Below are positions 3,208 to 64,000 of a stretch of DNA of 64,000 nt, piece after piece. The notes below the pieces were generated by a model, which was not told where the DNA came from, did no database searches, and saw only the letters and a list, made by a program, of their open reading frames with translations. The first letter of the stretch is position 1, and the number at the start of each line of letters is the position of its first letter. The stretch is taken from the NCBI GenBank assembly GCA_965220855.1, contig CBDCQY010000001.1, positions 1,384,592 to 1,448,591 of the forward strand, given 5' to 3'. The stretch comes from Alphaproteobacteria bacterium (GTDB lineage Bacteria; Pseudomonadota; Alphaproteobacteria; Bin95). The translations under genes were made by a program, and so were the position numbers.

Positions 3208-3236
3208 TTGCTTGATATTCCAGCGCCTGCTAGTAT
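3208..3236 (+). promoter_or_regulatory. putative sigma70-like promoter (TTGCTT-17 bp-TAGTAT) for autotransporter copy 1
   Basis: The -35/-10 hexamers have 17-bp spacing, and their positions and sequences are conserved upstream of copy 2 (6732-6760) despite divergence in the surrounding sequence. Confidence 0.35.
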
Positions 3237-3285
3237 TGTGAGCATATTCGACGTGACGCCGGTAGGGCTGCTTCTGGGGCAGAAA

Positions 3286-6731: not shown

Positions 6732-6760
6732 TTGCTTCACATTCTGACGCCTTCTAGTAA
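6732..6760 (+). promoter_or_regulatory. putative sigma70-like promoter (TTGCTT-17 bp-TAGTAA) for autotransporter copy 2
   Basis: Same architecture as upstream of copy 1. Confidence 0.35.
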
Positions 6761-6810
6761 GATAAATGCCTTCGACTTGACGTCGGCGGCGATGCTTCCG
6801 GGAGCATAGA

Positions 6811-32396: not shown

Positions 32397-33112
32397 CCGG
32401 CCGGTCGCCGCGCGCCTGGGTGGCGGGCGTCGGGGTCGGTCCGGGCGACCCGGAACTGCTGACGCTCAAGGCGCTGCGCATCGTGCGCAAGGCGGATGTG
32501 CTGGCCTATCCGGCCCCGCTCGAAGGCGAGAGCTTCGCGCGCCGGGTGGTCGCGCCGCATCTCGACGGCCCCGCCATCGAACTGCCGATCCGCATGCCGA
32601 TGTCTCCGTCGCGCTTCCCGGCCCAGCCGGTCTATGACCGGGCGGCGGACGCTATCGGGGCGCATCTCGAAGCCGGCCGGGGCGTGGCGGTGCTCTGCCA
32701 GGGCGATCCGTTCTTCTACGGCTCCTTCCTCTATCTGTTCGCGCGGCTCGCGGAAGACTGGCCGGTCGAGGTGGTGCCCGGCGTCTCGGCGCTGACCGCC
32801 TGCGCGGCCGTCGCCGGCCGACCGCTCGCCACGCGCAACGATGCGCTCGCGGTGCTGCCCGCGCCGCTCGACGATGCGGCGCTGGAGGCCAGGCTCGCCG
32901 CCTGCGACGCGGCCGCGCTGGTCAAGGTCGGGCGGCATTTCGGGCGCATCCGCGCCCTGCTCGCCCGGCTGCAACTCGCGGACCGCGCCTGCCTGGTCGT
33001 CCATGCCGGGCTGCCGGACGAGCGCGTGCTCGCCCTCGACGCCGTGGGCCCCGAGGATGCGCCCTATTTCTCCACCATCCTGCTGCACAAGCGGGGCAGG
33101 GCGTGGCGATGA
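32393..33112 (+). CDS. cobI: precorrin-2 C20-methyltransferase CobI/CbiL
   Basis: GTGA start/stop overlap. VGVGPGDPELLTLKA is the tetrapyrrole-MT motif. Confidence 0.85.
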   Translation: MTGRSPRAWVAGVGVGPGDPELLTLKALRIVRKADVLAYPAPLEGESFARRVVAPHLDGPAIELPIRMPMSPSRFPAQPVYDRAADAIGAHLEAGRGVAVLCQGDPFFYGSFLYLFARLAEDWPVEVVPGVSALTACAAVAGRPLATRNDALAVLPAPLDDAALEARLAACDAAALVKVGRHFGRIRALLARLQLADRACLVVHAGLPDERVLALDAVGPEDAPYFSTILLHKRGRAWR

Positions 33113-34749
33113 CGGTCGCGGTGGTGCTGAACGCGCGCGGCGCGGCGCTGGCCCGGCGGCTGGAGCTGGAGAGCGTCGGGCTGGAGGCGCTGGAGGAGCG
33201 CTTCGCCGCCGGAGAGCCGATCGTCGCCATCATGGCCGCCGGCATCGTCATCCGCCGCCTGGCCCCGCTGCTGGCGGGAAAGCGGACCGACGCGCCGGTC
33301 GTCGCCCTGGCGGAGGACGGCAGCGCGGTCGCGCCCCTGCTCGGCGGGCATCGGGGCGCGAACCGGCTGGCGCGCGAACTCGCCCGGCGGCTCGGCGTGG
33401 CGGCGGCGGTGACCACGGCGAGCGACGCGCTGTTCGGCGTGGCGCTGGACGACCCGCCGCCCGGCTGGACGCTCGCCAATCCCGAGATGGCGAAGCCGGT
33501 CATGGCGGCGCTGATCCGTGGGGAGCCGGTGCGGCTCCGGGTCGAGGCCGGCGACGCGCGCTGGCTCGCCCGGCTGCCCTGGTCGGAGGAGGGGCGCCGG
33601 TCGGTCCGCGTCTCGGACCGCTCCGCGCCGCCGGGCGAGGACGAACTGCTGCTGCATCCGCCGAGCCTCGCGCTGGGCGTCGGGCTGGAGCGGGACGCGC
33701 CTGCGCCCTCGCTGCTGGATCATGTGGCAAGGACGCTGGCCGCGGCCGGGCTGGCGCGGGCCTCGGTCGCGCTCGCTGCGACGCTCGACCTGAAGGCCGA
33801 CGAGCCGGCCGTCGCGGCGCTCGACCTGCCGCTTCGCACCTTCGACGCCGCCACGCTCCGGCGCGTGCCCGCGCCCAATCCCTCGCAGATCGTGGCGGCG
33901 GCGGTCGGCACGCCGAGCGTGGCCGAGGCGGCCGCCCTTGCGGCGGCGGGCGACGGGGCGGAACTGGTCGCGCCCAAGCGTATCGGCCGGCGCGTCACCG
34001 CTGCCGTCGCCCGCATCGCGCCGCCGCCCGGCCGGCTGACCGTGGCCGGAATAGGCCCCGGCGACCCGGCCATGCGCACGGCGGAGGTCGAGGCCGCGAT
34101 CTCGGCCGCGAGCGATGTCGTCGGCTATGCGCCCTATCTCGACCTGGTGGCGGACCTCACCGGAACCGCGCGCCGCCACCCGATGCCGATCGGCAGCGAG
34201 GCGGCGCGCGTCGATCTGGCGCTCAGGCTCGCGGGAGAAGGCCGCGAGGTCGCGCTGCTGGCCTCGGGCGACGCCGGCGTCTATGCGCTGGCGGGGCTGG
34301 CGCTGGAGCGCGGCCCGGCGGCGCTGCCCATCGCCGTGCTGCCCGGCGTCTCGGCCATGCAGGCGGCGGCGGCGCGGGCCGGCGCGCCGCTCGGCCACGA
34401 TTTCGCGGCGATCTCGCTCTCCGACCTGCTGACGCCGCCGGAGACCATTCGCGCGCGCGTCGAGGCGGCGGCGGCGGCGGACTTCGTCATCGCCTTCTAC
34501 AATCCGGCCTCGAAGACGCGGCGCCGGCCGCTGGCCGAGGCGCTGGAGACGCTCGCCCGCCACCGCGCGCCGACGACGCCCGTGGTCCGGGCGCGCAATC
34601 TCGGCCGGCCGGGAGAGGAGGTCGCGATCGGGACGCTGGCGGAACTCGACCCGGAGCGCGTCGATATGAACACCGTGCTGATCGTCGGCAACAGCCGCAG
34701 TTTCCTGCGCCACGGCCGCGTGGTCACGCCGCGCGGCTATCCGGCATGA
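33109..34749 (+). CDS. cobJ: bifunctional CbiG-like / precorrin-3B C17-methyltransferase (CbiG::CobJ/CbiH fusion)
   Basis: The N-terminal ~300 aa are CbiG-like. The C-terminal methyltransferase carries AGIGPGDPAMRT. ATGA overlap with the cobI stop. Confidence 0.8.
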   Translation: MTVAVVLNARGAALARRLELESVGLEALEERFAAGEPIVAIMAAGIVIRRLAPLLAGKRTDAPVVALAEDGSAVAPLLGGHRGANRLARELARRLGVAAAVTTASDALFGVALDDPPPGWTLANPEMAKPVMAALIRGEPVRLRVEAGDARWLARLPWSEEGRRSVRVSDRSAPPGEDELLLHPPSLALGVGLERDAPAPSLLDHVARTLAAAGLARASVALAATLDLKADEPAVAALDLPLRTFDAATLRRVPAPNPSQIVAAAVGTPSVAEAAALAAAGDGAELVAPKRIGRRVTAAVARIAPPPGRLTVAGIGPGDPAMRTAEVEAAISAASDVVGYAPYLDLVADLTGTARRHPMPIGSEAARVDLALRLAGEGREVALLASGDAGVYALAGLALERGPAALPIAVLPGVSAMQAAAARAGAPLGHDFAAISLSDLLTPPETIRARVEAAAAADFVIAFYNPASKTRRRPLAEALETLARHRAPTTPVVRARNLGRPGEEVAIGTLAELDPERVDMNTVLIVGNSRSFLRHGRVVTPRGYPA

Positions 34750-35507
34750 CGGTGCATTTCATCGGCGCGGGGCCGGGCGCGCCGGACCTCATCACGCTGC
34801 GCGGGCTGCGCCTGATCCGCCGCTCGCCGGTGGTGCTCTACGCCGGCTCGCTGGTGCCGGCGGAGGTCGTGGCCGAGGCGCCGGCGGGCGCGCTGGTCCG
34901 CGACAGCGCCGCCATGACGCTCGACGAGATCGAGGCGCTGTTCGTCGAGGCCGAGGCGGCCGGGCGGGATGTCGCGCGGGTGCATTCCGGCGACCCCTCT
35001 CTCTACGGGGCCATCGCCGAGCAGATCGCGCGGCTGGAGCGGCTCGGCATCGCCTATACGATCACGCCGGGCGTGCCGGCCTTCGCCGCCGCCGCCGCCG
35101 CGCTCGGCCTGGAACTGACGCTGCCCGGCGTCGCCCAGACCGTGACGCTGACCCGCACGGCCGTGCGCGCCACGCCCATGCCCGAAGGCGAACACCTGGC
35201 CGCCCAGGCGGAGAGCGGCGGCACGCTCGCCATCCACCTCTCGACCGCCAATCTCGCCCGCGTGGTGCGCGACCTGCTGCCGGCGCTCGGGCCGGACTGT
35301 CCGGCGGCGGTGGTCTGGCGCGCCAGCCAGCCGGAGCAGCGCATCGTGACCGGCACGCTCGCCACCATCCGCGAGCGGGTGAAGGCGGCGGGCTTCACTC
35401 GGACGGCGCTGATCCTGGTCGGTCGGGCGCTGGGCGCGCGCGAATTTCAGGAGAGCCGGCTTTACGATCCGGCGCACCATCACGCATCGCGACCGCGGCG
35501 GCGATGA
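34746..35507 (+). CDS. cobM: precorrin-4 C11-methyltransferase CobM/CbiF
   Basis: VHFIGAGPGAPDLITLRG. ATGA overlap with the upstream stop. The long ORF starting at 32841 is an artefactual in-frame run. Confidence 0.9.
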   Translation: MTVHFIGAGPGAPDLITLRGLRLIRRSPVVLYAGSLVPAEVVAEAPAGALVRDSAAMTLDEIEALFVEAEAAGRDVARVHSGDPSLYGAIAEQIARLERLGIAYTITPGVPAFAAAAAALGLELTLPGVAQTVTLTRTAVRATPMPEGEHLAAQAESGGTLAIHLSTANLARVVRDLLPALGPDCPAAVVWRASQPEQRIVTGTLATIRERVKAAGFTRTALILVGRALGAREFQESRLYDPAHHHASRPRRR

Positions 35508-50077: not shown

Positions 50078-50836
50078 CTAGACGGTCAGATAGCCGCCAT
50101 CGGCGGCGATCGTCACGCCGGTCACATATTGCGCCATGTCCGAGGCCAGGAAGAGCACCGGGCCGGCAATGTCTTCCGGCGCGCCGGGGCGGCCCATCGG
50201 GATATGGCGCATGAAGCGGGCCAGCATCTCCGGGTTCTTCTGGATGCCGTCCTCGTTGAGCGGCGTGAAGATCAGCCCCGGCGCCACGGCGTTCACCCGG
50301 ACGCCGAAGGGCGCGAGCTCGGCCGCAAGCGCCGTGGTGAAGTTCCTGACCGCGCCCTTCGAGGTCGTATAGGCCACCGAATTGGGCGTGTGCACGGTGG
50401 ACTGGATCGAGCCGGTATTCACGATCCGCCCCTTGGTCTGCTTCAGCTGGTCGAGAAAGGCGTGCGTCATGTAGAACAGGCTGTTGATATTGACGGCGAC
50501 CGTGTCTTCCCAGTCCTGCCGGGCGGTGTTGGAGGAAAGCGTCGCGCGGCGCACGATGCCGGCATTGTTGAACAGGATGGAGGCCGGCCCGAGCTCCAGA
50601 TGCACCCGCCCGGCGAGCGCCTGGCAGGCGTTGGCGTCGGTCACGTCCACTGCATAGGCCAGCGCCGCCGCCCCGATGCCGCTCGCCACGGCCTTGGCCT
50701 TGTCGCCCGCTATATCGACCACCGCCACCCTGGCGCCGGCCTCCGCCATGGCCTCGGCCGCGCCCCGCCCGATGCCGGAGCCGCCGCCGGTGACGACGGC
50801 GATATGGCCCGCCAGCAGTCCCTCAGGCACGATCAT
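50078..50836 (-). CDS. SDR family oxidoreductase
   Basis: VVTGGGSGIGRG, NNAG and YTTSKGA. Confidence 0.85.
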   Translation of the reverse strand: MIVPEGLLAGHIAVVTGGGSGIGRGAAEAMAEAGARVAVVDIAGDKAKAVASGIGAAALAYAVDVTDANACQALAGRVHLELGPASILFNNAGIVRRATLSSNTARQDWEDTVAVNINSLFYMTHAFLDQLKQTKGRIVNTGSIQSTVHTPNSVAYTTSKGAVRNFTTALAAELAPFGVRVNAVAPGLIFTPLNEDGIQKNPEMLARFMRHIPMGRPGAPEDIAGPVLFLASDMAQYVTGVTIAADGGYLTV

Positions 50837-51621
50837 CGCGAGGCCTCCTCCTTCACGGGCACGGTGTACATCAGCGGCAGCCGCCCGCCCTCGGCGAAGA
50901 TCGTCTGGCCGGTGACATAGGAGGAGTCGTCACTGGCGAGGAACACCGCCACCGAGGCGATCTCGTCCGGCTCCGCCGCGCGCCCCATCGGCGTGCGCGA
51001 CAGCACCATGCGGCGCGACTCCGGCGAGGCGAACACCATGTTGCGCATGAGTTCGGTGTTGGTGGAGCCCGGCCCGATGGCGTTCGCCCGGATGCCCCGG
51101 TCGGCCAGCGCCAGCGCCATGCCGGCGGTCATGTGGTTCACCGCCGCCTTGCTAGTGCAATAGGGCAGCTGCGTCGGGATGATCCGCTTGCCGGCGACCG
51201 AGCCGATGGTGATCAGCGCGCCGCCCTCGCCCTGGGCCGCCATCTGGCGGGCCGCCGCCTGGCAGGTCAGCATGACGCCGTTCACATTGACGCGCATCAC
51301 CCGGTCGAAATCGGCTTCCTCCAGCTCCAGGAAGTCCGAGCCGAAGCCGATGCCGGCATTGGCGACCGCGATGTCCAGCCGCCCGTAGCGCGCGACGGCG
51401 AGCGCCACCATGTCGCGCACCTCGCCCGCCTCGGTGACATCGGTAGCGGTGGCGGAGCAGGCGTCGTCATTGGCGATCGCGCGCGCGGCGGCTTCGGCCT
51501 TGTCGCCGTCGATGTCGGAAAGCAGCACCCTGGCTCCCTCGCGCACGAAGCGGGCGGCGATGGCGCTGCCGATCCCCTGTCCGGCTCCGGTGACGATGGC
51601 GACCTTGTTCTGCAGGCGCAT
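50833..51621 (-). CDS. SDR family oxidoreductase
   Basis: MRLQNKVAIVTGAGQGIGSA and YCTSKAA. GGAGAA lies upstream of the ATG at 51621. A 4-bp overlap with the downstream SDR suggests an operon. Confidence 0.85.
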   Translation of the reverse strand: MRLQNKVAIVTGAGQGIGSAIAARFVREGARVLLSDIDGDKAEAAARAIANDDACSATATDVTEAGEVRDMVALAVARYGRLDIAVANAGIGFGSDFLELEEADFDRVMRVNVNGVMLTCQAAARQMAAQGEGGALITIGSVAGKRIIPTQLPYCTSKAAVNHMTAGMALALADRGIRANAIGPGSTNTELMRNMVFASPESRRMVLSRTPMGRAAEPDEIASVAVFLASDDSSYVTGQTIFAEGGRLPLMYTVPVKEEASR

Positions 51622-51885
51622 GGCTGTTCTCCCCTGGGGCTTCCTTGCAAATCGTCCCTGTGCGCGATCCGGCGCCGCTCGGATAGTGCCACATTCTGCC
51701 GCTCTAATCGCGAACACGGATCGTGTCCTCGGATCGTGTCCCGAAGCGCTGACGCACCGTCGATGCGCCGCTTCTTCTGCAAGTGTCGTCCGGCCGGGAA
51801 AAAGCAGGTGTTCCTTCGGCTGCCTTCCGCTCGCCATTCTGGCGTTGCGTCAGGAATAAGCCTGTTTTGACTATTGGCGTTCGCA

Positions 51886-54800
51886 TCAGAAGTTGAAGCG
51901 AAAGTTGAAGTGGAGGCGGCGGTTGTCAGCGGAGCCGCCGCGGTTCTCATGGCCGGCGATCAGTTCCAGATCGATATGGCGGGCGGCGGCCTGGAAGGCG
52001 AGGCCGGCCTCCAGTTTGCTCCGGTCGCCCGTCTCCTCCGAGAGGCGCAGCAGGGGTGACAGCAGGCCGGATGAGGCCGGCAGCTGGAAGCCGTAGCGGG
52101 CCTCCAGTTCCAGCAGGGTTGCATCGTTGCTTCCGAAGCTGGCTTCGTCATAGTCGAGATCGTCCGCCAGCATCGCGGACCTGTCCGCGCGCGGACCGGT
52201 CGTCAGGCGCACCGACCAGGAGAGGCCGCGCCCGCGGGCGCCCGGCGCCAGCCGCGCCTCTAGGCTCGCGCCCCATTCGCGCACGCCACGCCCGGAATGC
52301 GCCGCCAGCCAGCGGCCGCTCGCATCCAGGCTGAAGCGCGAGCCGGGGTCCGTGAGGCGCCCGCCGACCGAAACCTCGACGCCGGAGCCCGTCACCCCGT
52401 CGCCGCCGTCCTGGCGCAGCGTCAGTGCGCCGTGCGGCGCCAGCGTCAGTTCGGAGCTGGAGAACACAAATCCGTCATGTTCGGCTTCCACGCCGACGCC
52501 GAGGCGCCAACTCGCCGCCTTCAGCCCGCCGATCGAGGTCGCTCGGGAGCCGTCGGTCTCGATTTGCGCCAGGCCCAACTCGCCGGTTGCAGAGAGAGCG
52601 AAGCGGTCGTGCTGCGCTACGGGCATGCGCCCGCCGGCCGACAAGGCTAGCAATTCGAGGTCGGCCCGCTCCACCGCTCCTTCTCTCGGGCGATGCTCCA
52701 TCTCGCCCTGCCCGGCTCCGAGCACCAGGCGCAACCGGCCGCCGCCTTCCGTCGTCATCTGCAGATAGGGCCAGACCGCGGTCACCGAGGTCTCGACGCT
52801 GCCGCTGTCCTCGTCGATGCGGTAGTCGGTCTCGCCGTCGCTCATCGAGAGTCCGAGGCCGGCCAGCAGCCGTTCGTCCAGCCGCGCGTCCAGCCCCAGC
52901 CAGCCGGCCCGCTGCTCCCCTTCATAGCGCCCCGTCTCCGCCGGGCCCTCGAACTGCCGCCAGTCGCCCCGGCCCCAGACCGTCCAGGCCGCGCCGCTGT
53001 CCGCAGTTTCGTCCGACGCAGCCAGCGGCAGCGTGAAGGCGCTGCCGCCCAACAGGGTCTCGGCGCTCACCGCGTCATGCCGCCCGGCCGCCCCGCCCGG
53101 GGTTCGCACGATCCGGTTGCCCGTTTCGGAAGCGGCGAGTTGGCGCGCGTCGCCTACCCGGCGCCCGGCAAGCGACAGCGCCGGCGCGCCCGGCGTCGCA
53201 TCGAACCGCAAGCGGATCGCATCCGTCGCGCTCGACAAGGCGGTCCGCGCGATCCTGGCGAGCATCGCCTTCAGCACTTGCCGCTCGACCTCCGGCGGGG
53301 CGTCCTCGATCTCGTTGGTCACCGTCACCGTCACCGACCGGTCCGCCATATTGCCGTCGGCGTCGGTCGCGGTCAGCGTGTAGGCGTAGCCATTGTCCGC
53401 GTCGCTGTCGTCCGGCTTCTCGAAGTCCCGCCCGGCCAGCGTCACCGTGACGCCGCTGTTGCTCGCGCCCGAGAGCGCGAACAGGTCCGCATCGGCGCCC
53501 GAGAGCGACCAGGCGACGGCGCCGATCGGCGCATCGCCCGTCAACACCGCCGCGCCGGCATAGTCGGCGTTCTCCGCCACGCTGGCGTTGGCCACGCCGC
53601 CGAGAGCCAGCGCCGCCGCCTCGATGACATCCGTCACCGTCACCGTCACCGCAAGGCTCGTGATGTTGTCGTCATCGTCGGTCGCGGTCAGCGTGTAGGC
53701 GTAGCCATTGTCCGCGTCGCTGTCGCCCGGGTTCTCATAGTTGCGCGCGGCCATCGACACCGTAACGCCGCTGTTGCTCCCGCCCGAAAGCGCGAACAGG
53801 CCGGCGTCCGCCCCCGAGAGCGACCAGGCGACGGCGCCGATCGGCGCATCGCCCGTGAGCGTCGCCATTCCGCTGTAGCCGGCGTTCTCCGCCACGCTGG
53901 CGTCGCCCACCCCCGCGATGGCCAGAGCCGCAGTCTCGTCCGCGTCCGTCACCGCGATCGTCACCGAGGCGTTCGTGGTGTTGCTGTCGTCGTCGGTCGC
54001 AGTCAGCGTGTAGGCGTAGCTGTTGCCGCCGTCGGCGTCGCTCGGGTTCTCGAAGTCCTTCGGGGTCATCGACACCGTGACGCCGCCATTGCTCGCGCCC
54101 GAGAGCGTGAACAGGTCCGCGTCGGCGCCCGAAAGCGACCAGGAGACCGCGCCGATCGGCCCGCCCGTGAGCGTCGCCGTTCGGCTATAGGCCGCGCCCT
54201 CCGCCACGCTGGCGTCAGCCACCCCCGCCAAGGTCAGCGTCGCGGTCTCGATCGCGTCCGTCACCGTGACGGTCACCGTCCGGCTCACCGTGTTTTCGTC
54301 ATCGTCGGTGGCGGTCAGCGTGTAGATATAGCTGTTGTCGGCGTCGGCGTCGGTCGGGTTTTCGAAGTCGCGCACCGTCAGCGTCACCGTGACCCCGCTG
54401 TTGCTCTCGTCCGAGAGTTCGAACAGCTCTCCGTCATCGCCGTCGAGCTTCCAGGCGACGGAGCCGATCGGCGCCTCGCCCGCCATCACCGCCGCGCCGC
54501 TATAGACGGCGTTCTCCGCCACACTGGCGTCGGCCACGCCCGCCACCGCGAGCGCAGCGACCTCTTTCGCGTCCGTGACCGTCACCGTGAAGACATCCGA
54601 GGTCACCGTGTCGCCGTCGCGATCCGTCGCCTTCAGCGTGTATTCGTAACGGTTGTCCCCGTCGCTGTCGGCGGGGTTCTCGAAGTCCTGCTCCGCCAGC
54701 GTCACGGTCGCCTCGGTGGCGCTCTCGCCCGACAGCGCGAACTTCCCGGCGTCGGCTCCGCCAAGCTCCCAGTTCACCGGCGCGTCGGCCCCGGCCAGCG

Positions 54801-57800
54801 TCGCCTTGTCGGTGAAGGTCCCGTTCTCCTCCACTTCGCCGCTGTCGAGCTCCGTCAGGACCAGTATCCGGTCATCGTCCGCGACCGTCACCGTCACGCT
54901 GCCCGCGACCTCGTCATATTCCACGCCCGACGCCGCCAGCGCCACCGTCACGGTCTCGTTCGCCGCATCGTCGCCATCGTCATCGACCGGCGAGACCGTC
55001 ACCGTCTGCGCCATCTCCCAGTCGTCGGCGGTGAAGGTCAGCTCCGCCGGCGAAACCGTCGCCGCGCCCGCGTCACCGCTCGACACCGCCACCGTCACCG
55101 CCGCCGTCGGCACATGCGAAAGCGCAACCGTGAATGTCCCGGCGCCCTGGCCTTCGCTCAGCGCCAGCGCGCCATTCGTCAGCCCCGCCAGACTCAAGGA
55201 CGCGATCTCGTCATCCGCAACCGTCACCGAAACGCTGCCGGCGGCCTCGTCATATTCCACGCCCGACGCCGCCAGAGACACCGACAGGGCCTCGTTCCCC
55301 GCATCCGCGTCATCGACCGGCGTCACCGTCACCGTCTGCGCCACATTCCAGTTCGTCGGCGTGAATGACAGGGTCGTCGGCGTCGCCGCCGCCGCGCCCG
55401 CGTCACCGCTGGCTACCGCCACCGTCACCGCCGCCGTCGGCACATGCGAAAGCGCAACCGTGAATGTCCCGGCAGAGCCGCCCTCCGTCAGCGACACCGG
55501 ACCCCCGGCAACCGCCAGCGACGCCGTCTCGTCATCCGCAACCGTCACCGAAACGCTGCCCGCGACCTCGTCATATTCCACGCCCGACGCCGCCAGAGAC
55601 ACCGACAGGGCCTCGTTCCCCGCATCCGCGTCATCGACCGGCGTCACCGTCACCGTCTGCGCCGTATTCCAGTTCGTCGGCGTGAATGACAGGGTCGCCG
55701 GCGCCGCCGCCGCCGCGCCCGCGTCACCGCTGGCTACCGCCACCGTCACCGCCGCCGTCGGCACATGCGAAAGCGCAACCGTGAATGTCCCGGCAGAGCC
55801 GCCCTCCGTCAGCGACACCGGACCCCCGGCAACCGCCAGAGACGCCGTCTCGTCATCCGCAACCGTCACCGAAACGCTGCCGGTAACCGATCCATACTCC
55901 GTCGCCCCGGACGCCGTGAGCGAGACCGACAGGGCCTCGTTCCCCGCATCCGCATCATCGACCGGCGTCACCGTCACCGTCTGCGCCGCATTCCAGTTCG
56001 TCGGTGTGAACGACAGGGTCGCCGGCGTCGCCGCCGCCGCGCCCGTATCACCGCTGGCTACCGCCACCGTCACCGCCGCCGTCGGCACATGCGAAAGCGC
56101 AACCGTGAATGTCCCGGCGGAGCCGCCCTCCGTCAGCGACACAGGACCCCCGGCAACCGCCAGAGACGCCGTCTCGTCATCCGCAACCGTCACCGAAACG
56201 CTGCCGGTAACCGATCCATACTCCGTCGCCCCGGACGCCGTGAGCGAGACCGACAGCGACTCGTTCCCCGCATCCGCATCATCGACCGGCGTCACCGTCA
56301 CCGTCTGCGCCGTATTCCAGTTCGTCGGCGTGAATGACAGGGTCGTCGGCGTCGCCGCCGCCGCGCCCGCGTCACCGCTGGCTACCGCCACCGTCACCGC
56401 CGCCGTCGGCGCATGCGAAAGCGCAACCGTGAATGTCCCGGCAGAGCCGCCCTCCGTCAGCGCCACCGGACCCCCGGCAACCGCCAGAGACGCCGTCTCG
56501 TCATCGTCAACCGTCACCGAAACGCTGCCCGCGACCTCGTCATATTCCACGCCCGACGCCGCCAGAGACACCGACAGGGCCTCGTTCCCCGCATCCGCGT
56601 CATCGACCGGCGTCACCGTCACCGTCTGTGCCGCATTCCAGTTCGTCGGCGTGAATGACAGGGTCGCCGGCGTCGCCGCCGCCGCGCCCGTATCACCGCT
56701 GGCTACCGCCACCGTCACCGCCGCCGTCGGCACATGCGAAAGCGCAACCGTGAATGTCCCGGCAGAGCCGCCCTCCGTCAGCGACACCGGACCCCCGGCA
56801 ACCGCCAGAGACGCCGTCTCGTCATCCGCAACCGTCACCGAAACGCTGCCCGCGACCTCGTCATATTCCACGCCCGACGCCGCCAGAGACACCGACAGGG
56901 CCTCGTTCCCCGCATCCGCGTCATCGACCGGCGTCACCGTCACCGTCTGCGCCGCATTCCAGTTCGTCGGCGTGAATGACAGGGTCGTCGGCGTCGCCGC
57001 CGCCGCGCCCGTATCACCGCTGGCTACCGCCACCGTCACCGCCGCCGTCGGCACATGCGAAAGCGCAACCGTGAATGTCCCGGCGGAGCCGCCCTCCGTC
57101 AGCGCCACCGGACCCCCGGCAACCGCCAGAGACGCCGTCTCGTCATCCGCAACCGTCACCGAAACGCTGCCCGCGACCTCGTCATATTCCACGCCCGACG
57201 CCGCCAGAGACACCGACAGCGACTCGTTCCCCGCATCCGCGTCATCGACCGGCGTCACCGTAACCGTCTGCGCCGCATTCCAGTTCGTCGGCGTGAATGA
57301 CAGGGTCGTCGGCGTCGCCGCCGCCGCGCCCGCGTCACCGCTGGCTACCGCCACCGTCACCGCCGCCGTCGGCACATGCGAAAGCGCAACCGTGAATGTC
57401 CCGGCAGAGCCGCCCTCCGTCAGCGCCACCGGACCCCCGGCAACCGCCAGAGACGCCGTCTCGTCATCGTCAACCGTCACCGAAACGCTGCCCGCGACCT
57501 CGTCATATTCCACGCCCGACGCCGCCAGAGACACCGACAGGGCCTCGTTCCCCGCATCCGCGTCATCGACCGGCGTCACCGTCACCGTCTGCGCCGCATT
57601 CCAGTTCGTCGGCGTGAATGACAGGGTCGTCGGCGTCGCCGCCGCCGCGCCCGCGTCACCGCTGGCTACCGCCACCGTCACCGCCGCCGTCGGCACATGC
57701 GAAAGCGCAACCGTGAATGTCCCGGCAGAGCCGCCCTCCGTCAGCGACACCGGACCCCCGGCAACCGCCAGAGACGCCGTCTCGTCATCCGCAACCGTCA

Positions 57801-60800
57801 CCGAAACGCTGCCCGCGACCTCGTCATATTCCACGCCCGACGCCGCCAGAGACACCGACAGGGCCTCGTTCCCCGCATCCGCGTCATCGACCGGCGTCAC
57901 CGTCACCGTCTGCGCCGCATTCCAGTTCGTCGGCGTGAACGACAGGGTCGTCGGCGTCGCCGCCGCCGCGCCCGTATCACCGCTGGCTACCGCCACCGTC
58001 ACCGCCGCCGTCGGCACATGCGAAAGCGCAACCGTGAATGTCCCGGCGGAGCCGCCCTCCGTCAGCGACACCGGACCCCCGGCAACCGCCAGAGACGCCG
58101 TCTCGTCATCCGCAACCGTCACCGAAACGCTGCCCGCGACCTCGTCATATTCCACGCCCGACGCCGCCAGAGACACCGACAGGGCCTCGTTCCCCGCATC
58201 CGCGTCATCGACCGGCGTCACCGTAACCGTCTGCGCCGCATTCCAGTTCGTCGGCGTGAATGACAGGGTCGTCGGCGTCGCCGCCGCCGCGCCCGCGTCA
58301 CCGCTGGCTACCGCCACCGTCACCGCCGCCGTCGGCACATGCGAAAGCGCAACCGTGAATGTCCCGGCGGAGCCGCCCTCCGTCAGCGACACCGGACCCC
58401 CGGCAACCGCCAGAGACGCCGTCTCGTCATCCGCAACCGTCACCGAAACGCTGCCCGCGACCTCGTCATATTCCACGCCCGACGCCGCCAGAGACACCGA
58501 CAGGGCCTCGTTCCCCGCATCCGCGTCATCGACCGGCGTCACCGTCACCGTCTGCGCCGCATTCCAGTTCGTCGGCGTGAATGACAGGGTCGCCGGCGTC
58601 GCCGCCGCCGCGCCCGTATCACCGCTGGCTACCGCCACCGTCACCGCCGCCGTCGGCACATGCGAAAGCGCAACCGTGAATGTCCCGGCGGAGCCGCCCT
58701 CCGTCAGCGCCACCGGACCCCCGGCAACCGCCAGAGACGCCGTCTCGTCATCCGCAACCGTCACCGAAACGCTGCCGGTAACCGATCCATACTCCGTCGC
58801 CCCGCTCGCCGTGAGCGAGACCGACAGGGCCTCATCCCCCGCATCCGCATCATCGACCGGCGTCACCGTCACCGTCTGCGCCGCATTCCAGTTCGTCGGC
58901 GTGAATGACAGGGTCGTCGGCGTCGCCGCCGCCGCGCCCGCGTCACCGCTGGCTACCGCCACCGTCACCGCCGCCGTCGGCACATGCGAAAGCGCAACCG
59001 TGAATGTCCCGGCAGAGCCGCCCTCCGTCAGCGACACCGGACCCCCGGCAACCGCCAGAGACGCCGTCTCGTCATCCGCAACCGTCACCGAAACGCTGCC
59101 CGCGACCTCGTCATATTCCACGCCCGACGCCGCCAGAGACACCGACAGGGCCTCGTTCCCCGCATCCGCATCATCGACCGGCGTCACCGTCACCGTCTGC
59201 GCCGTATTCCAGTTCGTCGGCGTGAATGACAGGGTCGTCGGCGTCGCCGCCGCCGCGCCCGTATCACCGCTGGCTACCGCCACCGTCACCGCCGCCGTCG
59301 GCACATGCGAAAGCGCAACCGTGAATGTCCCGGCAGAGCCGCCCTCCGTCAGCGCCACCGGACCCCCGGCAACCGCCAGCGACGCCGTCTCGTCATCCGC
59401 AACCGTCACCGAAACGCTGCCCGCGACCTCGTCATATTCCACGCCCGACGCCGCCAGAGACACCGACAGGGCCTCGTTCCCCGCATCCGCGTCATCGACC
59501 GGCGTCACCGTCACCGTCTGCGCCGTATTCCAGTTCGTCGGCGTGAACGACAGGGTCGTCGGCGTCGCCGTCGCCGCGCCCGCGTCACCGCTCGACACCG
59601 CCACCGTCACCGCCGCCGTCGGCACATGCGAAAGCGCAACCGTGAATGTCCCGGCGGAGCCGCCCTCCGTCAGCGCCACCGGACCCCCGGCAACCGCCAG
59701 AGACGCCGTCTCGTCATCGTCAACCGTCACCGAAACGCCGCCCGTGACCGATCCATATTCGGCCGCCCCGCTCGCCGTGAGCGAGACCGACAGGGCCTCG
59801 TTCCCCGCATCCGCGTCATCGACCGGCGTCACCGTCACCGTCTGCGCCGCATTCCAGTTCGTCGGCGTGAATGACAGGGTCGTCGGCGTCGCCGCCGCCG
59901 CGCCCGTATCACCGCTCGACACCGCCACCGTCACCGCCGCCGTCGGCACATGCGAAAGCGCAACCGTGAATGTCCCGGCAGAGCCGCCCTCCGTCAGCGA
60001 CACAGGACCCCCGGCAACCGCCAGCGACGCCGTCTCGTCATCCGCAACCGTCACCGAAACGCTGCCCGCGACCTCGTCATATTCCACGCCCGACGCCGCC
60101 AGAGACACCGACAGCGACTCGTTCCCCGCATCCGCATCATCGACCGGCGTCACCGTCACCGTCTGCGCCGTATTCCAGTTCGTCGGCGTGAACGACAGGG
60201 TCGTCGGCGTCGCCGCCGCCGCGCCCGCGTCACCGCTCGACACCGCCACCGTCACCGCCGCCGTCGGCACATGCGAAAGCGCAACCGTGAATGTCCCGGC
60301 GGAGCCGCCCTCCGTCAGCGACACCGGACCCCCGGCAACCGCCAGAGACGCCGTCTCGTCATCCGCAACCGTCACCGAAACGCTGCCGGCGGCCTCGTCA
60401 TATTCCACGCCCGACGCCGCCAGAGACACCGACAGCGACTCGTTCCCCGCATCCGCGTCATCGACCGGCGTCACCGTCACCGTTTGCGCCGTATTCCAGT
60501 TCGTCGGCGTGAACGACAGGGTCGTCGGCGTCGCCGCCGCCGCGCCCGTATCACCGCTGGCTACCGCCACCGTCACCGCCGCCGTCGGCACATGCGAAAG
60601 CGCAACCGTGAAGCTCCCGGCAGAGCCGCCCTCCGTCAGCGCCACAGGACCCCCGGCAACCGCCAGAGACGCCGTCTCGTCATCGTCAACCGTCACAGCC
60701 ACCCCGTCCGTGACCGATCCATATTCGGCAGCCCCGCTCGCCGTGAGCGAAACCGACAGGGCCTCATCTCCCGCATCCGCGTCATCGACCGGCGTCACCG

Positions 60801-63800
60801 TCACCGTCTGCGCCACATTCCAGTTCGTCGGCGTGAATGACAGGGTCGTCGGCGTCGCCGCCGCCGCGCCCGTATCACCGCTCGACACCGCCACCGTCAC
60901 CGCCGCCGTCGGCACATGCGAAAGCGCAACCGTGAAGCTCCCGGCAGAGCCGCCCTCCGTCAGCGACACCGGACCCCCGGCAACCGCCAGAGACGCCGTC
61001 TCGTCATCGTCAACCGTCACCGCCACCCCGTCCGTGACCGATCCATATTCGGCAGCCCCGCTCGCCGTGAGCGAGACCGACAGGGCCTCATCTCCCGCAT
61101 CCGCGTCATCGACCGGCGTCACCGTCACCGTCTGCGCCGCATTCCAGTTCGTCGGCGTGAACGACAGGGTCGTCGGCGTCGCCGCCGCCGCGCCCGTATC
61201 ACCGCTGGCTACCGCCACCGTCACCGCCGCCGTCGGCACATGCGAAAGCGCAACCGTGAATGTCCCGGCAGAACCGCCCTCCGTCAGCGACACCGGACCC
61301 CCGGCAACCGCCAGAGACGCCGTCTCGTCATCCGCAACCGTCACCGAAACGCTGCCGGCGACCTCGTCATATTCCACGCCCGACGCCGCCAGAGACACCG
61401 ACAGCGACTCGTTCCCCGCATCCGCGTCATTGACCGGCGTCACCGTCACCGTCTGCGCCACATTCCAGTTCGTCGGCGTGAACGACAGGGTCGTCGGCGT
61501 CGCCGCCGCCGCGCCCGTATCACCGCTCGACACCGCCACCGTCACCGCCGCCGTCGGCACATGCGAAAGCGCAACCGTGAATGTCCCGACAGAGCCGCCC
61601 TCCGTCAGCGCCACCGGACCCCCGGCAACCGCCAGAGACGCCGTCTCGTCATCCGCAACCGTCACCGCCACGCTGCCGGCGACCTCGTCATATTCCACGC
61701 CCGACGCCGCCAGAGACACCGACAGCGACTCGTTCCCCGCATCCGCGTCATCGACCGGCGTCACCGTCACCGTTTGCGCCACATTCCAGTTCGTCGGCGT
61801 GAACGACAGGGTCGCCGGCGTCGCCGCCGCCGCGCCCGTATCACCGCTCGACACCGCCACCGTCACCGCCGCCGTCGGCACATGCGAAAGCGCAACCGTG
61901 AAGCTCCCGGCAGAGCCGCCCTCCGTCAGCGCCACAGGACCCCCGGCAACCGCCAGAGACGCCGTCTCGTCATCCGCAACCGTCACCGAAACGCTGCCGG
62001 TAACCGATCCATACTCCGTCGCCCCGGACGCCGTGAGCGAGACCGACAGGGCCTCATCTCCCGCATCCGCGTCATCGACCGGCGTCACCGTCACCGTCTG
62101 CGCCGTATTCCAGTTCGTCGGCGTGAATGACAGGGTCGTCGGCGTCGCCGCCGCCGCGCCCGTATCACCGCTCGACACCGCCACCGTCACCGCCGCCGTC
62201 GGCACATGCGAAAGCGCAACCGTGAATGTCCCGACAGAGCCGCCCTCCGTCAGCGACACCGGACCCCCGGCAACCGCCAGAGACGCCGTCTCGTCATCGT
62301 CAACCGTCACCGCCACGCTGCCGGCGACCTCGTCATATTCCACGCCCGACGCCGCCAGAGACACCGACAGCGACTCGTTCCCCGCATCCGCGTCATCGAC
62401 CGGCGTCACCGTCACCGTCTGCGCCGCATTCCAGTTCGTCGGCGTGAATGACAGGGTCGTCGGCGTCGCCGCCGCCGCGCCCGTATCACCGCTCGACACC
62501 GCCACCGTCACCGCCGCCGTCGGCGCATGCGAAAGCGCAACCGTGAAGCTCCCGGCAGAGCCGCCCTCCGTCAGCGACACCGGACCCCCGGCAACCGCCA
62601 GAGACGCCGTCTCGTCATCCGCAACCGTCACCGAAACGCTGCCGGTAACCGATCCATACTCCGTCGCCCCGCTCGCCGTGAGCGAAACCGACAGGGCCTC
62701 ATCTCCCGCATCCGCGTCATCGACCGGCGTCACCGTCACCGTCTGCGCCGTATTCCAGTTCGTCGGCGTGAACGACAGGGTCGTCGGCGTCGCCGCCGCC
62801 GCGCCCGTATCACCGCTCGACACCGCCACCGTCACCGCCGCCGTCGGCACATGCGAAAGCGCAACCGTGAATGTCCCGGCAGAGCCGCCCTCCGTCAGCG
62901 ACACCGGACCCCCGGCAACCGCCAGAGACGCCGTCTCGTCATCCGCAACCGTCACCGAAACGCTGCCCGCGACCTCGTCATATTCCACGCCCGACGCCGC
63001 CAGAGACACCGACAGGGCCTCGTTCCCCGCATCCGCGTCATCGACCGGCGTCACCGTCACCGTCTGCGCCGCATTCCAGTTCGTCGGCGTGAATGACAGG
63101 GTCGTCGGCGTCGCCGCCGCCGCGCCCGCGTCACCGCTGGCTACCGCCACCGTCACCGCCGCCGTCGGCACATGCGAAAGCGCAACCGTGAATGTCCCGG
63201 CAGAGCCGCCCTCCGTCAGCGCCACCGGACCCCCGGCAACCGCCAGAGACGCCGTCTCGTCATCGTCAACCGTCACCGTCACTGACTCGTCCGCCACGTC
63301 GTCATAGCCGCCGCCCGAGGGGTCGAGGTCGAGCGTGGCGCTGTCGTTCGCTGCATCGTCGTCGTGGGCCGCATCGACCGTCACCGTTTGCGCGAGACTC
63401 CAGTCCGAGGTCGTGAAGGTCAAGCTGGCGGGGCTGGCCGCCACCTCGTCATTGTCCGACGACAGCGCCACCGTCACCGTTCCCGTCGGGGCGGCCGCCA
63501 GCGCCAGGGTGAAGTTCCCCGACGAACCCTCCGTGATCGTCAGACTCGCCGGCGTCGCTGTCAGCCCCGCGCCCGGCTGGGCAGGGGTGACAGTGACGGT
63601 GAAGGTCTCGCTGACCGCCTCTCCGACGCCATAGTTTTCGGTAGCGGTGACAGTAATTGTCGCGGACCCGGAAGAAACGCCTGTAATTTCCACATTAAAA
63701 GTCACTCTAACTTCAAGAAAGTCATCCAAGATCTTGTTCACAATTTCTGCAACAGCGACAGAAGTATCGCTGCTCAAAGCGGTCACCTCCACCTCATCGG

Positions 63801-64000
63801 CGCTTCCTCCGTGGTTCACAAGGCCTGTGACTGTGACCTGCGGTGTTTCCTCCGTCTCCCCGAGGGCTACCGTGAGATCGTCAATGGAGCTGATGGATCC
63901 GTGAGAGAAGGTTTCGGCCGACTGCGCTCCCGCCAGCAGGAATATCGCGCTGGACAACATCGCCAGGCCGCTTCCGGAAAATCGCTTCGGCCTTCTGCCC
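51886..64000 (-). CDS. giant type Va autotransporter (>4,000 aa): N-terminal low-GC tip region, ~26 Calx-beta-like repeats, 5 cadherin-like repeats, C-terminal beta-barrel translocator. The 5' end is probably beyond the window.
   Basis: One uninterrupted minus-strand ORF of 12 kb. The reading frame remains open upstream of the M at 63960 (GRRPKRFSGSGLAMLSSAIFLLAGAQSA looks like a signal peptide). The C-terminus WTVWGRGDWRQFEG...LTLRQDGGDG...NRRLHFNFRFNF is clearly homologous to the translocators of the two smaller autotransporters and ends in aromatic residues. Confidence 0.85.
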   Translation of the reverse strand, partial: GRRPKRFSGSGLAMLSSAIFLLAGAQSAETFSHGSISSIDDLTVALGETEETPQVTVTGLVNHGGSADEVEVTALSSDTSVAVAEIVNKILDDFLEVRVTFNVEITGVSSGSATITVTATENYGVGEAVSETFTVTVTPAQPGAGLTATPASLTITEGSSGNFTLALAAAPTGTVTVALSSDNDEVAASPASLTFTTSDWSLAQTVTVDAAHDDDAANDSATLDLDPSGGGYDDVADESVTVTVDDDETASLAVAGGPVALTEGGSAGTFTVALSHVPTAAVTVAVASGDAGAAAATPTTLSFTPTNWNAAQTVTVTPVDDADAGNEALSVSLAASGVEYDEVAGSVSVTVADDETASLAVAGGPVSLTEGGSAGTFTVALSHVPTAAVTVAVSSGDTGAAAATPTTLSFTPTNWNTAQTVTVTPVDDADAGDEALSVSLTASGATEYGSVTGSVSVTVADDETASLAVAGGPVSLTEGGSAGSFTVALSHAPTAAVTVAVSSGDTGAAAATPTTLSFTPTNWNAAQTVTVTPVDDADAGNESLSVSLAASGVEYDEVAGSVAVTVDDDETASLAVAGGPVSLTEGGSVGTFTVALSHVPTAAVTVAVSSGDTGAAAATPTTLSFTPTNWNTAQTVTVTPVDDADAGDEALSVSLTASGATEYGSVTGSVSVTVADDETASLAVAGGPVALTEGGSAGSFTVALSHVPTAAVTVAVSSGDTGAAAATPATLSFTPTNWNVAQTVTVTPVDDADAGNESLSVSLAASGVEYDEVAGSVAVTVADDETASLAVAGGPVALTEGGSVGTFTVALSHVPTAAVTVAVSSGDTGAAAATPTTLSFTPTNWNVAQTVTVTPVNDADAGNESLSVSLAASGVEYDEVAGSVSVTVADDETASLAVAGGPVSLTEGGSAGTFTVALSHVPTAAVTVAVASGDTGAAAATPTTLSFTPTNWNAAQTVTVTPVDDADAGDEALSVSLTASGAAEYGSVTDGVAVTVDDDETASLAVAGGPVSLTEGGSAGSFTVALSHVPTAAVTVAVSSGDTGAAAATPTTLSFTPTNWNVAQTVTVTPVDDADAGDEALSVSLTASGAAEYGSVTDGVAVTVDDDETASLAVAGGPVALTEGGSAGSFTVALSHVPTAAVTVAVASGDTGAAAATPTTLSFTPTNWNTAQTVTVTPVDDADAGNESLSVSLAASGVEYDEAAGSVSVTVADDETASLAVAGGPVSLTEGGSAGTFTVALSHVPTAAVTVAVSSGDAGAAAATPTTLSFTPTNWNTAQTVTVTPVDDADAGNESLSVSLAASGVEYDEVAGSVSVTVADDETASLAVAGGPVSLTEGGSAGTFTVALSHVPTAAVTVAVSSGDTGAAAATPTTLSFTPTNWNAAQTVTVTPVDDADAGNEALSVSLTASGAAEYGSVTGGVSVTVDDDETASLAVAGGPVALTEGGSAGTFTVALSHVPTAAVTVAVSSGDAGAATATPTTLSFTPTNWNTAQTVTVTPVDDADAGNEALSVSLAASGVEYDEVAGSVSVTVADDETASLAVAGGPVALTEGGSAGTFTVALSHVPTAAVTVAVASGDTGAAAATPTTLSFTPTNWNTAQTVTVTPVDDADAGNEALSVSLAASGVEYDEVAGSVSVTVADDETASLAVAGGPVSLTEGGSAGTFTVALSHVPTAAVTVAVASGDAGAAAATPTTLSFTPTNWNAAQTVTVTPVDDADAGDEALSVSLTASGATEYGSVTGSVSVTVADDETASLAVAGGPVALTEGGSAGTFTVALSHVPTAAVTVAVASGDTGAAAATPATLSFTPTNWNAAQTVTVTPVDDADAGNEALSVSLAASGVEYDEVAGSVSVTVADDETASLAVAGGPVSLTEGGSAGTFTVALSHVPTAAVTVAVASGDAGAAAATPTTLSFTPTNWNAAQTVTVTPVDDADAGNEALSVSLAASGVEYDEVAGSVSVTVADDETASLAVAGGPVSLTEGGSAGTFTVALSHVPTAAVTVAVASGDTGAAAATPTTLSFTPTNWNAAQTVTVTPVDDADAGNEALSVSLAASGVEYDEVAGSVSVTVADDETASLAVAGGPVSLTEGGSAGTFTVALSHVPTAAVTVAVASGDAGAAAATPTTLSFTPTNWNAAQTVTVTPVDDADAGNEALSVSLAASGVEYDEVAGSVSVTVDDDETASLAVAGGPVALTEGGSAGTFTVALSHVPTAAVTVAVASGDAGAAAATPTTLSFTPTNWNAAQTVTVTPVDDADAGNESLSVSLAASGVEYDEVAGSVSVTVADDETASLAVAGGPVALTEGGSAGTFTVALSHVPTAAVTVAVASGDTGAAAATPTTLSFTPTNWNAAQTVTVTPVDDADAGNEALSVSLAASGVEYDEVAGSVSVTVADDETASLAVAGGPVSLTEGGSAGTFTVALSHVPTAAVTVAVASGDTGAAAATPATLSFTPTNWNAAQTVTVTPVDDADAGNEALSVSLAASGVEYDEVAGSVSVTVDDDETASLAVAGGPVALTEGGSAGTFTVALSHAPTAAVTVAVASGDAGAAAATPTTLSFTPTNWNTAQTVTVTPVDDADAGNESLSVSLTASGATEYGSVTGSVSVTVADDETASLAVAGGPVSLTEGGSAGTFTVALSHVPTAAVTVAVASGDTGAAAATPATLSFTPTNWNAAQTVTVTPVDDADAGNEALSVSLTASGATEYGSVTGSVSVTVADDETASLAVAGGPVSLTEGGSAGTFTVALSHVPTAAVTVAVASGDAGAAAAAPATLSFTPTNWNTAQTVTVTPVDDADAGNEALSVSLAASGVEYDEVAGSVSVTVADDETASLAVAGGPVSLTEGGSAGTFTVALSHVPTAAVTVAVASGDAGAAAATPTTLSFTPTNWNVAQTVTVTPVDDADAGNEALSVSLAASGVEYDEAAGSVSVTVADDEIASLSLAGLTNGALALSEGQGAGTFTVALSHVPTAAVTVAVSSGDAGAATVSPAELTFTADDWEMAQTVTVSPVDDDGDDAANETVTVALAASGVEYDEVAGSVTVTVADDDRILVLTELDSGEVEENGTFTDKATLAGADAPVNWELGGADAGKFALSGESATEATVTLAEQDFENPADSDGDNRYEYTLKATDRDGDTVTSDVFTVTVTDAKEVAALAVAGVADASVAENAVYSGAAVMAGEAPIGSVAWKLDGDDGELFELSDESNSGVTVTLTVRDFENPTDADADNSYIYTLTATDDDENTVSRTVTVTVTDAIETATLTLAGVADASVAEGAAYSRTATLTGGPIGAVSWSLSGADADLFTLSGASNGGVTVSMTPKDFENPSDADGGNSYAYTLTATDDDSNTTNASVTIAVTDADETAALAIAGVGDASVAENAGYSGMATLTGDAPIGAVAWSLSGADAGLFALSGGSNSGVTVSMAARNYENPGDSDADNGYAYTLTATDDDDNITSLAVTVTVTDVIEAAALALGGVANASVAENADYAGAAVLTGDAPIGAVAWSLSGADADLFALSGASNSGVTVTLAGRDFEKPDDSDADNGYAYTLTATDADGNMADRSVTVTVTNEIEDAPPEVERQVLKAMLARIARTALSSATDAIRLRFDATPGAPALSLAGRRVGDARQLAASETGNRIVRTPGGAAGRHDAVSAETLLGGSAFTLPLAASDETADSGAAWTVWGRGDWRQFEGPAETGRYEGEQRAGWLGLDARLDERLLAGLGLSMSDGETDYRIDEDSGSVETSVTAVWPYLQMTTEGGGRLRLVLGAGQGEMEHRPREGAVERADLELLALSAGGRMPVAQHDRFALSATGELGLAQIETDGSRATSIGGLKAASWRLGVGVEAEHDGFVFSSSELTLAPHGALTLRQDGGDGVTGSGVEVSVGGRLTDPGSRFSLDASGRWLAAHSGRGVREWGASLEARLAPGARGRGLSWSVRLTTGPRADRSAMLADDLDYDEASFGSNDATLLELEARYGFQLPASSGLLSPLLRLSEETGDRSKLEAGLAFQAAARHIDLELIAGHENRGGSADNRRLHFNFRFNF
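53390..54890 (-). repeat. five tandem cadherin-like ~98-aa repeats (DFENPxDxDxDNxYxYTLTATDxDxN motif) between the Calx array and the translocator
   Basis: Five units of pattern ...AGVADASVAEN..YSG.A.LTGDAPIGAVAWSLSGADA.LFALSG.SNSGVTV....RDFENP.DSDADN.Y.YTLTATDDD.N... Confidence 0.6.
54900..63600 (-). repeat. tandem array of ~26 Calx-beta-like repeat units (321/324-bp period), ~25 near-identical at the DNA level, two alternating subtypes
   Basis: The protein unit DDETASLAVAGGPV(S/A)LTEGGSAGTFTVALSHVPTAAVTVAV(A/S)SGD(T/A)GAAAATPTTLSFTPTNWN(A/T)AQTVTVTPVDDADAGNEALSVSL(A/T)ASG(VEYDEVAG/ATEYGSVTG)SVSVTVA is repeated. Identical antisense mini-ORFs recur every 321 or 324 bp from 55444 to 62527. Confidence 0.9.

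Follow-up and report, generated by a model that had tools for sequence, protein, structure and literature searches.

The 64,000-nucleotide window analysed here (positions 1,384,592 to 1,448,591 of contig CBDCQY010000001.1, alphaproteobacterial assembly GCA_965220855.1) carries three genes, hereafter A, B and G, whose long tandem-repeat passengers precede one homologous type of C-terminal translocator. We consider it probable that all three encode classical (type Va) autotransporter adhesins of a single large, uncharacterised subfamily. Each polypeptide runs in the order that defines this class: a signal peptide, a passenger, a translocator and a C-terminal aromatic beta-signal. Across relatives, similarity between repeats and similarity between translocators are discordant, and this supports a history in which translocators and passenger repeat arrays appear to have been re-paired many times.

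The three open reading frames (ORFs) lie where an earlier model-made annotation, the sequence-only reading, had placed them, A and B on the forward strand and G on the reverse. That reading proposed one conserved translocator scaffold carrying shuffled beta-sandwich passengers. The exchange holds at the level of the family, where the similarities are discordant; three of its particulars, three different passengers, unrelated repeat families and restriction to one lineage, do not. The genes are laid out as follows (GC3, GC content at third codon positions).

3133–6606, +, gene A ORF; probable start at 3286 (M52)
3286–3378, +, gene A signal peptide, from the probable true start at M52 of the 3133 ORF; aligns with the gene B start
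3379–3849, +, gene A cysteine-rich orphan tip domain, low GC (GC 0.576, GC3 0.57)
3850–5232, +, gene A five He_PIG repeats of ~93 aa each (Pfam He_PIG)
5233–6606, +, gene A linker helix, probable beta-barrel translocator (WTFWGRGD to RLRF) and stop codon
6811–10686, +, gene B ORF
6811–7368, +, gene B signal peptide and cysteine-rich orphan tip, low GC (GC 0.568, GC3 0.62); tip domain proper at 6904–7368
7369–9312, +, gene B seven He_PIG repeats (Pfam He_PIG)
9313–10686, +, gene B linker helix, probable beta-barrel translocator and stop codon
51886–63960, −, gene G ORF, 4,024 codons; frame open at base 64000
63919–64000, −, gene G 5' end and signal peptide (from the translation of 63999–63901)
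63580–63918, −, gene G N-terminal tip (aa 15–127), Ig-like (Pfam fn3_6), low GC
54871–63579, −, gene G 27 tandem repeats of 107–108 aa (aa 128–3030), Calx-beta/LapA-like beta-sandwich
53311–54870, −, gene G five 105-aa cadherin-like repeats (aa 3031–3550), membrane-proximal, from tandem-repeat search and motif
52990–53310, −, gene G linker (aa 3551–3657) with a 30-residue helix (aa 3557–3586) and the conserved LLGGSAFTLPL segment
51886–52989, −, gene G probable beta-barrel translocator (aa 3658–4024, WTVWGRGD to RFNF) and stop codon

A shared translocator in a large family

Over their full length, the C-terminal 504 residues of G match the last 501 of A at 41% identity (239 bits, E 2e-77), which bears out the homology that the sequence-only reading had seen in the last ~500 residues of the three proteins. 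Translocators A and B are 98.7% identical, G and A 40.5%, and a tblastn search of the window with the G barrel yields three copies and no more. The motifs quoted earlier are all present in the translations: WTFWGRGDLRRFEG in one and WTVWGRGDWRQFEG in the other, LALRQDGGDG and LTLRQDGGDG, and the RLRF and RFNF ends. The generic Pfam Autotransporter profile (PF03797) scores 35.5 bits on G, 33.8 on A and 31.3 on B, with a cut-off of 26. Because these scores are low and no solved autotransporter is found by sequence, the mutual similarity lies far above the level of likeness to generic AIDA-type barrels, the comparison on which the earlier reading had staked its claim.

Relatives are numerous. A word-indexed search returned 46 of them at 28–56% identity, with several paralogues per genome, and a genomic scan that covered one genome per species returned 97, all in metagenome-assembled genomes (MAGs). 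We kept 77 of these loci, cited below by L numbers where they must be told apart. The shortest proteins among these genomic relatives have ~730 aa and the longest exceed 2,500 aa; one genome holds at least 13 copies. A HMMER scan of 1.84 billion metagenomic cluster representatives gave 5,920 matches at E<=1e-30, an upper bound, as the profile holds ~140 passenger-proximal columns. Among the best 150 of them, nearly all match the whole translocator, and lengths run from 469 to 7,796 aa.

The predicted fold probably agrees with the class. An AlphaFold2 model of a 504-aa translocator construct has a helix at residues 37–66 with a predicted local distance difference test score (pLDDT) of ~95, and the linker helix is kept across the family alignment. 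Foldseek aligns the model to solved autotransporters, including NalP, AIDA-I, EstA, AaaA, BrkA and EspP, with target-normalised template modelling scores, TM(target), of 0.6–0.75. Superposition on the 12-strand units of NalP and AIDA-I is near-complete, which favours a core of 12 strands with one additional conserved element.

Several features mark the family. WGRGD lies 357–376 aa ahead of the C-terminus in nearly all members in which the motif was located, and ~70 residues separate the linker helix from the first strand. The beta-domain is ~100 aa longer than those of solved autotransporters (245–303 residues in the fold-search tables), and relatives share an extra segment of the form HWLALHS..EWGASLEARL.PGA.GRGLSL. 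Of the 77 relatives, 74 close with a similar C-terminal strand motif, whose final residue is almost always F, Y or W; the three exceptions are L037, L042 and L068, which have doubtful 3' ends.

Exchange of passengers across the family

Passengers in the family are drawn from a mixed repertoire. A Pfam census of the 560 aa upstream of the translocator in the 77 loci finds fn3 in 36, He_PIG in 21, Big_9 in 11 and Big_2 in 7, together with PKD, LapA, HYR, Calx-beta and bacterial cadherin domains. The repeats of the window recur in this set. A hidden Markov model (HMM) of the 107-aa repeat of G matches 26 of the 77 loci, in arrays of 19 or more; an HMM of the window's He_PIG repeat matches 19, often directly ahead of the linker; and L001 has one cadherin-like repeat directly before the linker, the position it occupies in G.

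Repeats and translocators do not keep the same company. The best matches to the G repeat are in L053 (67%) and L040 (66%), whose translocators are 34–40% identical to that of G, and the loci with the translocators nearest to G's (L004–L008, 52–54%) are without the 107-aa repeat. Within single genomes, L019 and L029 have translocators that are 100% identical and passengers of 977 and 476 aa, and L010, with fn3, and L014, with LapA/Calx-like domains, have translocators 81% identical.

Tandem genes A and B

On sequence grounds we take A and B to be tandem paralogues with one passenger type. Pfam He_PIG (PF05345; cut-off 24) matches five stretches of A at 131.5 bits and seven of B at 186.4 bits, and the B array equals the A array plus an internal duplication of repeats 2–3. 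The window thus holds two passenger types rather than the three that had been claimed, A and B sharing one and differing by two He_PIG repeats and a diverged tip.

Divergence between the two genes is sharply graded. Their ~155-aa tips share 52% of residues and six conserved cysteines, with synonymous divergence (dS) of 0.72, nonsynonymous divergence (dN) of 0.43 and a ratio (omega) of 0.6. Downstream, dS drops first to 0.28 (repeat 1), then to 0.11 (repeat 2), and is down to 0.01 across the final 734 codons (2.2 kb). This gradient fits gene conversion or recent recombination that would have homogenised stalk and translocator and left out the tip, the old and divergent tips having been either retained or swapped in. 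Positive selection alone was rejected as the source of the tip divergence: dS rises 70-fold too, and omega in the tip is 0.6.

The tips are orphans by the searches we made. The A tip has no Pfam or NCBIfam match, and a word-indexed search of 5.8 billion proteins found no homologue of the A and B tips at E<=1e-3. AlphaFold on the two-sequence alignment gave an unusable model (pLDDT 47).

Their composition is also distinctive, and G shares it. Tip GC is 0.576 in A, 0.568 in B and 0.549 in G, with GC3 of 0.57, 0.62 and 0.62; in the remainder of the genes GC3 is 0.81–0.92, and GC in the remainder of G is ~0.70. The lower GC noted earlier at all three N-termini is therefore real. A general 5'-end effect was rejected because the first 450 nt of 28 other genes in the window have a mean GC3 of 0.90 (range 0.74–0.96).

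Two side observations concern this gene pair. The signal peptides of A (3286–3378) and B (6811–6903) have lipobox-like LVAC and LLAC sequences before a cleavage-like site between AWS and QS; lipidation of A and B, as in NalP, is possible. A second alphaproteobacterial MAG (L078; GCA_009839445.1, VXPT01000077.1, 1–4640) also has two family genes in tandem, its He_PIG/fn3 gene overlapping the start of P0026 by 4 nt, which echoes the A/B arrangement.

The giant gene G

The passenger of G begins with an Ig-like (immunoglobulin-like) tip that weakly matches Pfam fn3_6 (26.7 bits, cut-off 26.4) and continues into an array of 25 near-identical units with a degenerate copy at either end. Tandem Repeats Finder (TRF) resolves a period of 321 with 26 copies and 93% matches. 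The 25 core units are 88–99.7% identical to one another as DNA (mean 94%). They comprise two subtypes, interspersed along the array, one of 107 aa with VEYDE and one of 108 aa with A[TA]EYGS. The 97–99% identity within the block of units 15–21 implies that the array expanded locally in the very recent past, and strains are likely to differ in copy number.

The sequence-only reading called these repeats Calx-beta. Pfam assigns them to no family and gives no Calx-beta (PF03160) match even at E<=1, and a PDB search with the repeat profile returned no relevant match. Profile–profile comparison is what makes them Calx-beta-like: hhalign pairs the 107-aa repeat with bona fide Calx-beta repeats of family members (55 bits) at a probability of 93% (E 2.8e-7). 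Pfam assigns relatives of the repeat in L022 and L044 to the LapA domain.

Nearest the membrane are the 105-aa repeats (TRF period 315, 4.6 copies), which we delimited on the motif YxYTL[KT]ATD. The earlier label of cadherin-like stands by motif (YxYTLTATDxDxN, DxDxDN) and does not reach the Pfam threshold: Cadherin (PF00028) scores 20.4 bits, below its cut-off of 28.8. K319L-like_PKD scores 51.9 bits, confined to the last 27 profile positions.

Distribution of the family

Hosts span several phyla, and many of the genomes belong to uncultured marine bacteria. They include Alphaproteobacteria (Rhodobacterales, Paracoccaceae, Rhodospirillales), Gammaproteobacteria (among them AqS3, Ca. Porisulfidus and Azotimanducaceae), Acidobacteriota (Ca. 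Marinacidobacterium, Ca. Multivoraceae), Nitrospirales, Thermodesulfobacteriota and Ca. Binatia. Some of these names point towards sponges. The name Azotimanducaceae reportedly occurs in a paper on Arctic sponge microbiomes. AqS3 is a symbiont of Amphimedon (bioRxiv 10.64898/2026.08.05.743132) and Porisulfidus has been termed a 'known sponge symbiont' (PMC12988363); in sponge microbiomes, cadherin and fn3 proteins are reported to be enriched and laterally transferred (PMC10947273).

Some translocators are 83–97% identical between MAGs of different class or order labels (L043/L045 and L023/L032, at 83–90%, and L064/L065), for example 83% between gammaproteobacterial OZ244895 and alphaproteobacterial OZ244893. 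This suggests either recent lateral transfer or problems of binning or labelling.

Alternative explanations

Several observations weigh against the assignment of A, B and G to classical autotransporters with exchanged passengers. The Pfam Autotransporter match is confined to profile positions 1–214 of 255 in all three proteins, a PDB search with the family profile found no solved autotransporter at E<=1, and an NCBIfam scan of translocators, repeats and tip gave no meaningful match, its autotransporter models missing them too. The translocator model has 18 strands by DSSP, not 12, all with alternating hydrophobic residues, and its residues 381–426 have pLDDT below 50. At many loci the 6 kb flank cuts the passenger short, and our translocator tree is a neighbour-joining tree without support values. 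A recent duplication whose 5' ends were later replaced could, in place of gene conversion, account for the dS gradient between A and B. The putative sponge context of window and family rests on a few host taxon names.

A bolder reading, unlikely in our view, makes the family a distinct branch of type V secretion. Its enlarged translocator of ~360 aa, perhaps with more than 12 strands or an extra beta-domain, would export bead-on-string passengers of up to ~7,800 aa; it would have spread laterally among unrelated symbionts of marine sponges, for which it would be the means of displaying 'eukaryote-like' fn3/cadherin domains, and its tips would be exchangeable foreign cassettes of lower GC.

We think it quite unlikely that the C-terminal domain is simply a larger barrel of 14–18 strands, in a separate type V subclass whose resemblance to autotransporters is partial. 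The 18 modelled strands with their hydrophobic alternation favour such a barrel, as do the ~360 aa from WGRGD to the end, ~100 aa above the solved beta-domains, the Pfam match that stops at position 214, and TM(target) values no higher than 0.75.

A different objection concerns the passengers, which might have diverged in place from one ancestral cadherin-superfamily array, with no shuffling at all. Comparison of the repeat families lends this some substance. In hhalign, He_PIG and cadherin-like repeats share their C-terminal 29 columns (YTxxATDxDG...V; probability 82%), and Calx-like and cadherin-like profiles give a weak full-length alignment (62%). The alignment of G with A accordingly begins within the last passenger repeat (YTLTATDADG in one, YTWRATDRDG in the other), because the two repeat types share those last 29 columns; the membrane-proximal repeats of G and A evidently have a motif in common. 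Yet Calx-like and He_PIG profiles show no similarity, closely related translocators bear passengers of fn3, Big_2, PKD and LapA type, and repeat similarity is strongly discordant with translocator similarity. We judge divergence in place improbable.

The same comparison bears on the statement that the repeats come from unrelated families, which is not clearly so. Besides the columns that He_PIG and cadherin-like repeats share, there are single proteins in other genomes that combine the window's three repeat types, such as L046 and L063, the former with 16 Calx-like repeats, two fn3 domains and one He_PIG repeat. We read the window's repeat types as a common family toolkit, not as independent recruitments.

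That toolkit also tells against a lineage-specific family born of duplication within this genome, each copy independently recruiting an unrelated stalk. Three copies within 64 kb, 41% identical over translocator and linker, are what such duplication would give, and A and B clearly are a local tandem duplication. Nevertheless, the closest foreign translocators are 54% identical to that of G (52–54% for L004–L008) and 46% to that of A, as against 40.5% between G and A, and the family extends over several phyla and thousands of clusters, so the term lineage-specific falls. As the Calx-like repeat occurs at 26 of the 77 loci and He_PIG at 19, these are shared modules rather than separate acquisitions of stalks. 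The neighbour-joining tree places G in one clade, with L001 as its nearest neighbour, and A/B in another. Since the clades are separate and each is closer to foreign translocators, G and A/B would be old paralogues or separate acquisitions; we find an origin by duplication in this genome very improbable.

Finally, that the similarity is generic to all autotransporter barrels, or the giant array an assembly artefact, is scarcely credible: low Pfam autotransporter scores are all that speaks for the former, 41% identity at E 2e-77 over 500 aa and family motifs absent from solved autotransporters speak against it, and the 12 kb ORF of G is intact, with coding-type GC3 and structured unit variation in two interspersed subtypes.

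A proposed route to the surface

As classical autotransporter adhesins, A, B and G would each be delivered to the periplasm by a Sec signal peptide. The beta-barrel assembly machinery (BAM) would insert the C-terminal domain, with its aromatic C-terminus, autotransporter-like 12-strand core, linker helix and ~100 family-specific extra residues, into the outer membrane, and the passenger would exit C-terminus first. That passenger would be a string of independently folding beta-sandwich domains rather than a beta-helix: He_PIG, cadherin-like and Calx-beta/LapA-like in the window, mostly fn3 in relatives. These domains would probably fold one by one outside the cell and thereby drive secretion, as in intimin and invasin. 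Seawater calcium would stiffen them into a stalk of perhaps ~25–35 nm in A and B and ~150 nm in G, assuming ~4.5 nm per domain, and the stalk would present a small, fast-evolving tip domain.

Evolution of these proteins may be modular at three levels. Re-pairing of translocator and array would recur across the family. Repeat arrays would grow and shrink by unequal recombination, as the 25 units of G at 88–99.7% identity and the two additional repeats of B over A suggest. Intragenomic recombination or gene conversion would homogenise translocator and proximal stalk, leaving the tip divergent and compositionally foreign.

Relation to known systems

A, B and G resemble type Va autotransporters in topology and Pfam profile, and probably in fold. 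Unlike AIDA-I, NalP, Hbp, EspP, BrkA and EstA, they carry a passenger of beta-sandwich repeats, not a beta-helix or an enzyme, and their beta-domain has the additional ~100 aa and the conserved family motifs described above. Pfam scans of the passengers in the window and the 77 loci found no pertactin, autochaperone or beta-helix family, only beta-sandwich repeats. A 2022 review recognises just three structural types of autotransporter passenger, the beta-helix, an enzyme on a helix and an enzyme alone (PMC9289746), and Ig-like and cadherin passengers go unmentioned in two bioinformatic surveys of autotransporters (PMC3419190, PMC5767081).

Three other systems share features with the family, which in its presumed function resembles the first two without belonging to either. 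Inverse autotransporters (type Ve; intimin, invasin) also have tandem Ig-like domains, a distinct tip and export through a small barrel, and sequential domain folding is thought to drive their export; they are defined by an N-terminal barrel and a C-terminal passenger, whereas in A, B and G the order is reversed. Giant RTX adhesins of the LapA, SiiE, MpIBP and BapA type, exported by type I secretion systems (T1SS), likewise combine long, near-identical arrays of Ca2+-type beta-sandwiches with a ligand-binding end. In contrast to these, A, B and G have a C-terminal autotransporter barrel and lack both an RTX/T1SS signal and an N-terminal retention module. The 'eukaryote-like' proteins reported from sponge microbiomes have the same domain repertoire, and fn3 dominates the family of A, B and G; those reports are domain counts. 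A literature search in one library found no paper tying classical autotransporters to such passengers or to the fn3/cadherin proteins of sponge symbionts.

The beta-helical passenger underlies textbook models of autotransporter secretion, in which its vectorial folding is believed to draw the chain outwards. A family with tandem Ig-like, fn3, cadherin and Calx-like passengers, some of them thousands of residues long, would be a natural test of that model and a ready-made scaffold for the surface display of repeat proteins. It could also explain how uncultured, probably sponge-associated marine symbionts place 'eukaryote-like' adhesion domains on their surface. The A/B pair, with a homogenised anchor and stalk and an old tip of foreign composition, suggests a way in which binding specificity might vary while the export machinery is kept.

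Gene starts and neighbouring genes

Gene A most likely begins at M52 (3286), the residue that aligns with the start of B (MTTLL(H/D)RAPVL...). Promoter-like sites lie at 3212–3239, upstream of the A start, and at 6736–6763, upstream of B. The frame of G has no upstream stop: 63999–63901 translates to GRRPKRFSGSGLAMLSSAIFLLAGAQSA followed by ETF, and the in-frame peptide that precedes it, GRRPKRFSGSGLA-MLSSAIFLLAGAQSA, resembles a signal peptide: inspection shows a basic n-region, a hydrophobic core and a cleavage-like AQSA site. Because the ORF is open at the edge and this peptide is signal-peptide-like, the true start of G is placed just beyond the window edge at 64000.

An antisense ORF at 54653–63307 (+, 2,884 codons) was rejected as a gene; it mirrors the repeat array of G. 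The strongly negative GC skew across 55–63 kb (~−0.23) is, like this ORF, a by-product of repeat composition.

Partner secretion genes and T1SS genes are absent among the window neighbours, which are metabolic: short-chain dehydrogenases/reductases (SDRs), a molybdopterin oxidoreductase, an ATP-binding cassette (ABC) peptide transporter, cobalamin synthesis, MutY and a hydantoinase. MutY has a 99% match on a 1.8 Mb ENA contig, and the named proteins nearest to it, 61–66% identical, come from Rhodospirillales-type Alphaproteobacteria. Exact-sequence searches returned no record of gene B or of one SDR neighbour; they located an ABC permease of the window in ENA assemblies ERZ25067264 and ERZ25072670, which is uninformative as to habitat. 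In the SDR gene directly downstream of G (50833–51837, −), ~77 residues precede the Pfam domain and the first 450 nt have a low GC3 of 0.74; its annotated start is probably too far upstream. The cobalamin-synthesis cluster at 31000–35000 has the highest GC of the window (0.76–0.78). It includes a CbiG/precorrin methylase fusion at 33103–34749, and several of its long ORFs, which overlap one another on the two strands, are probably not real genes.

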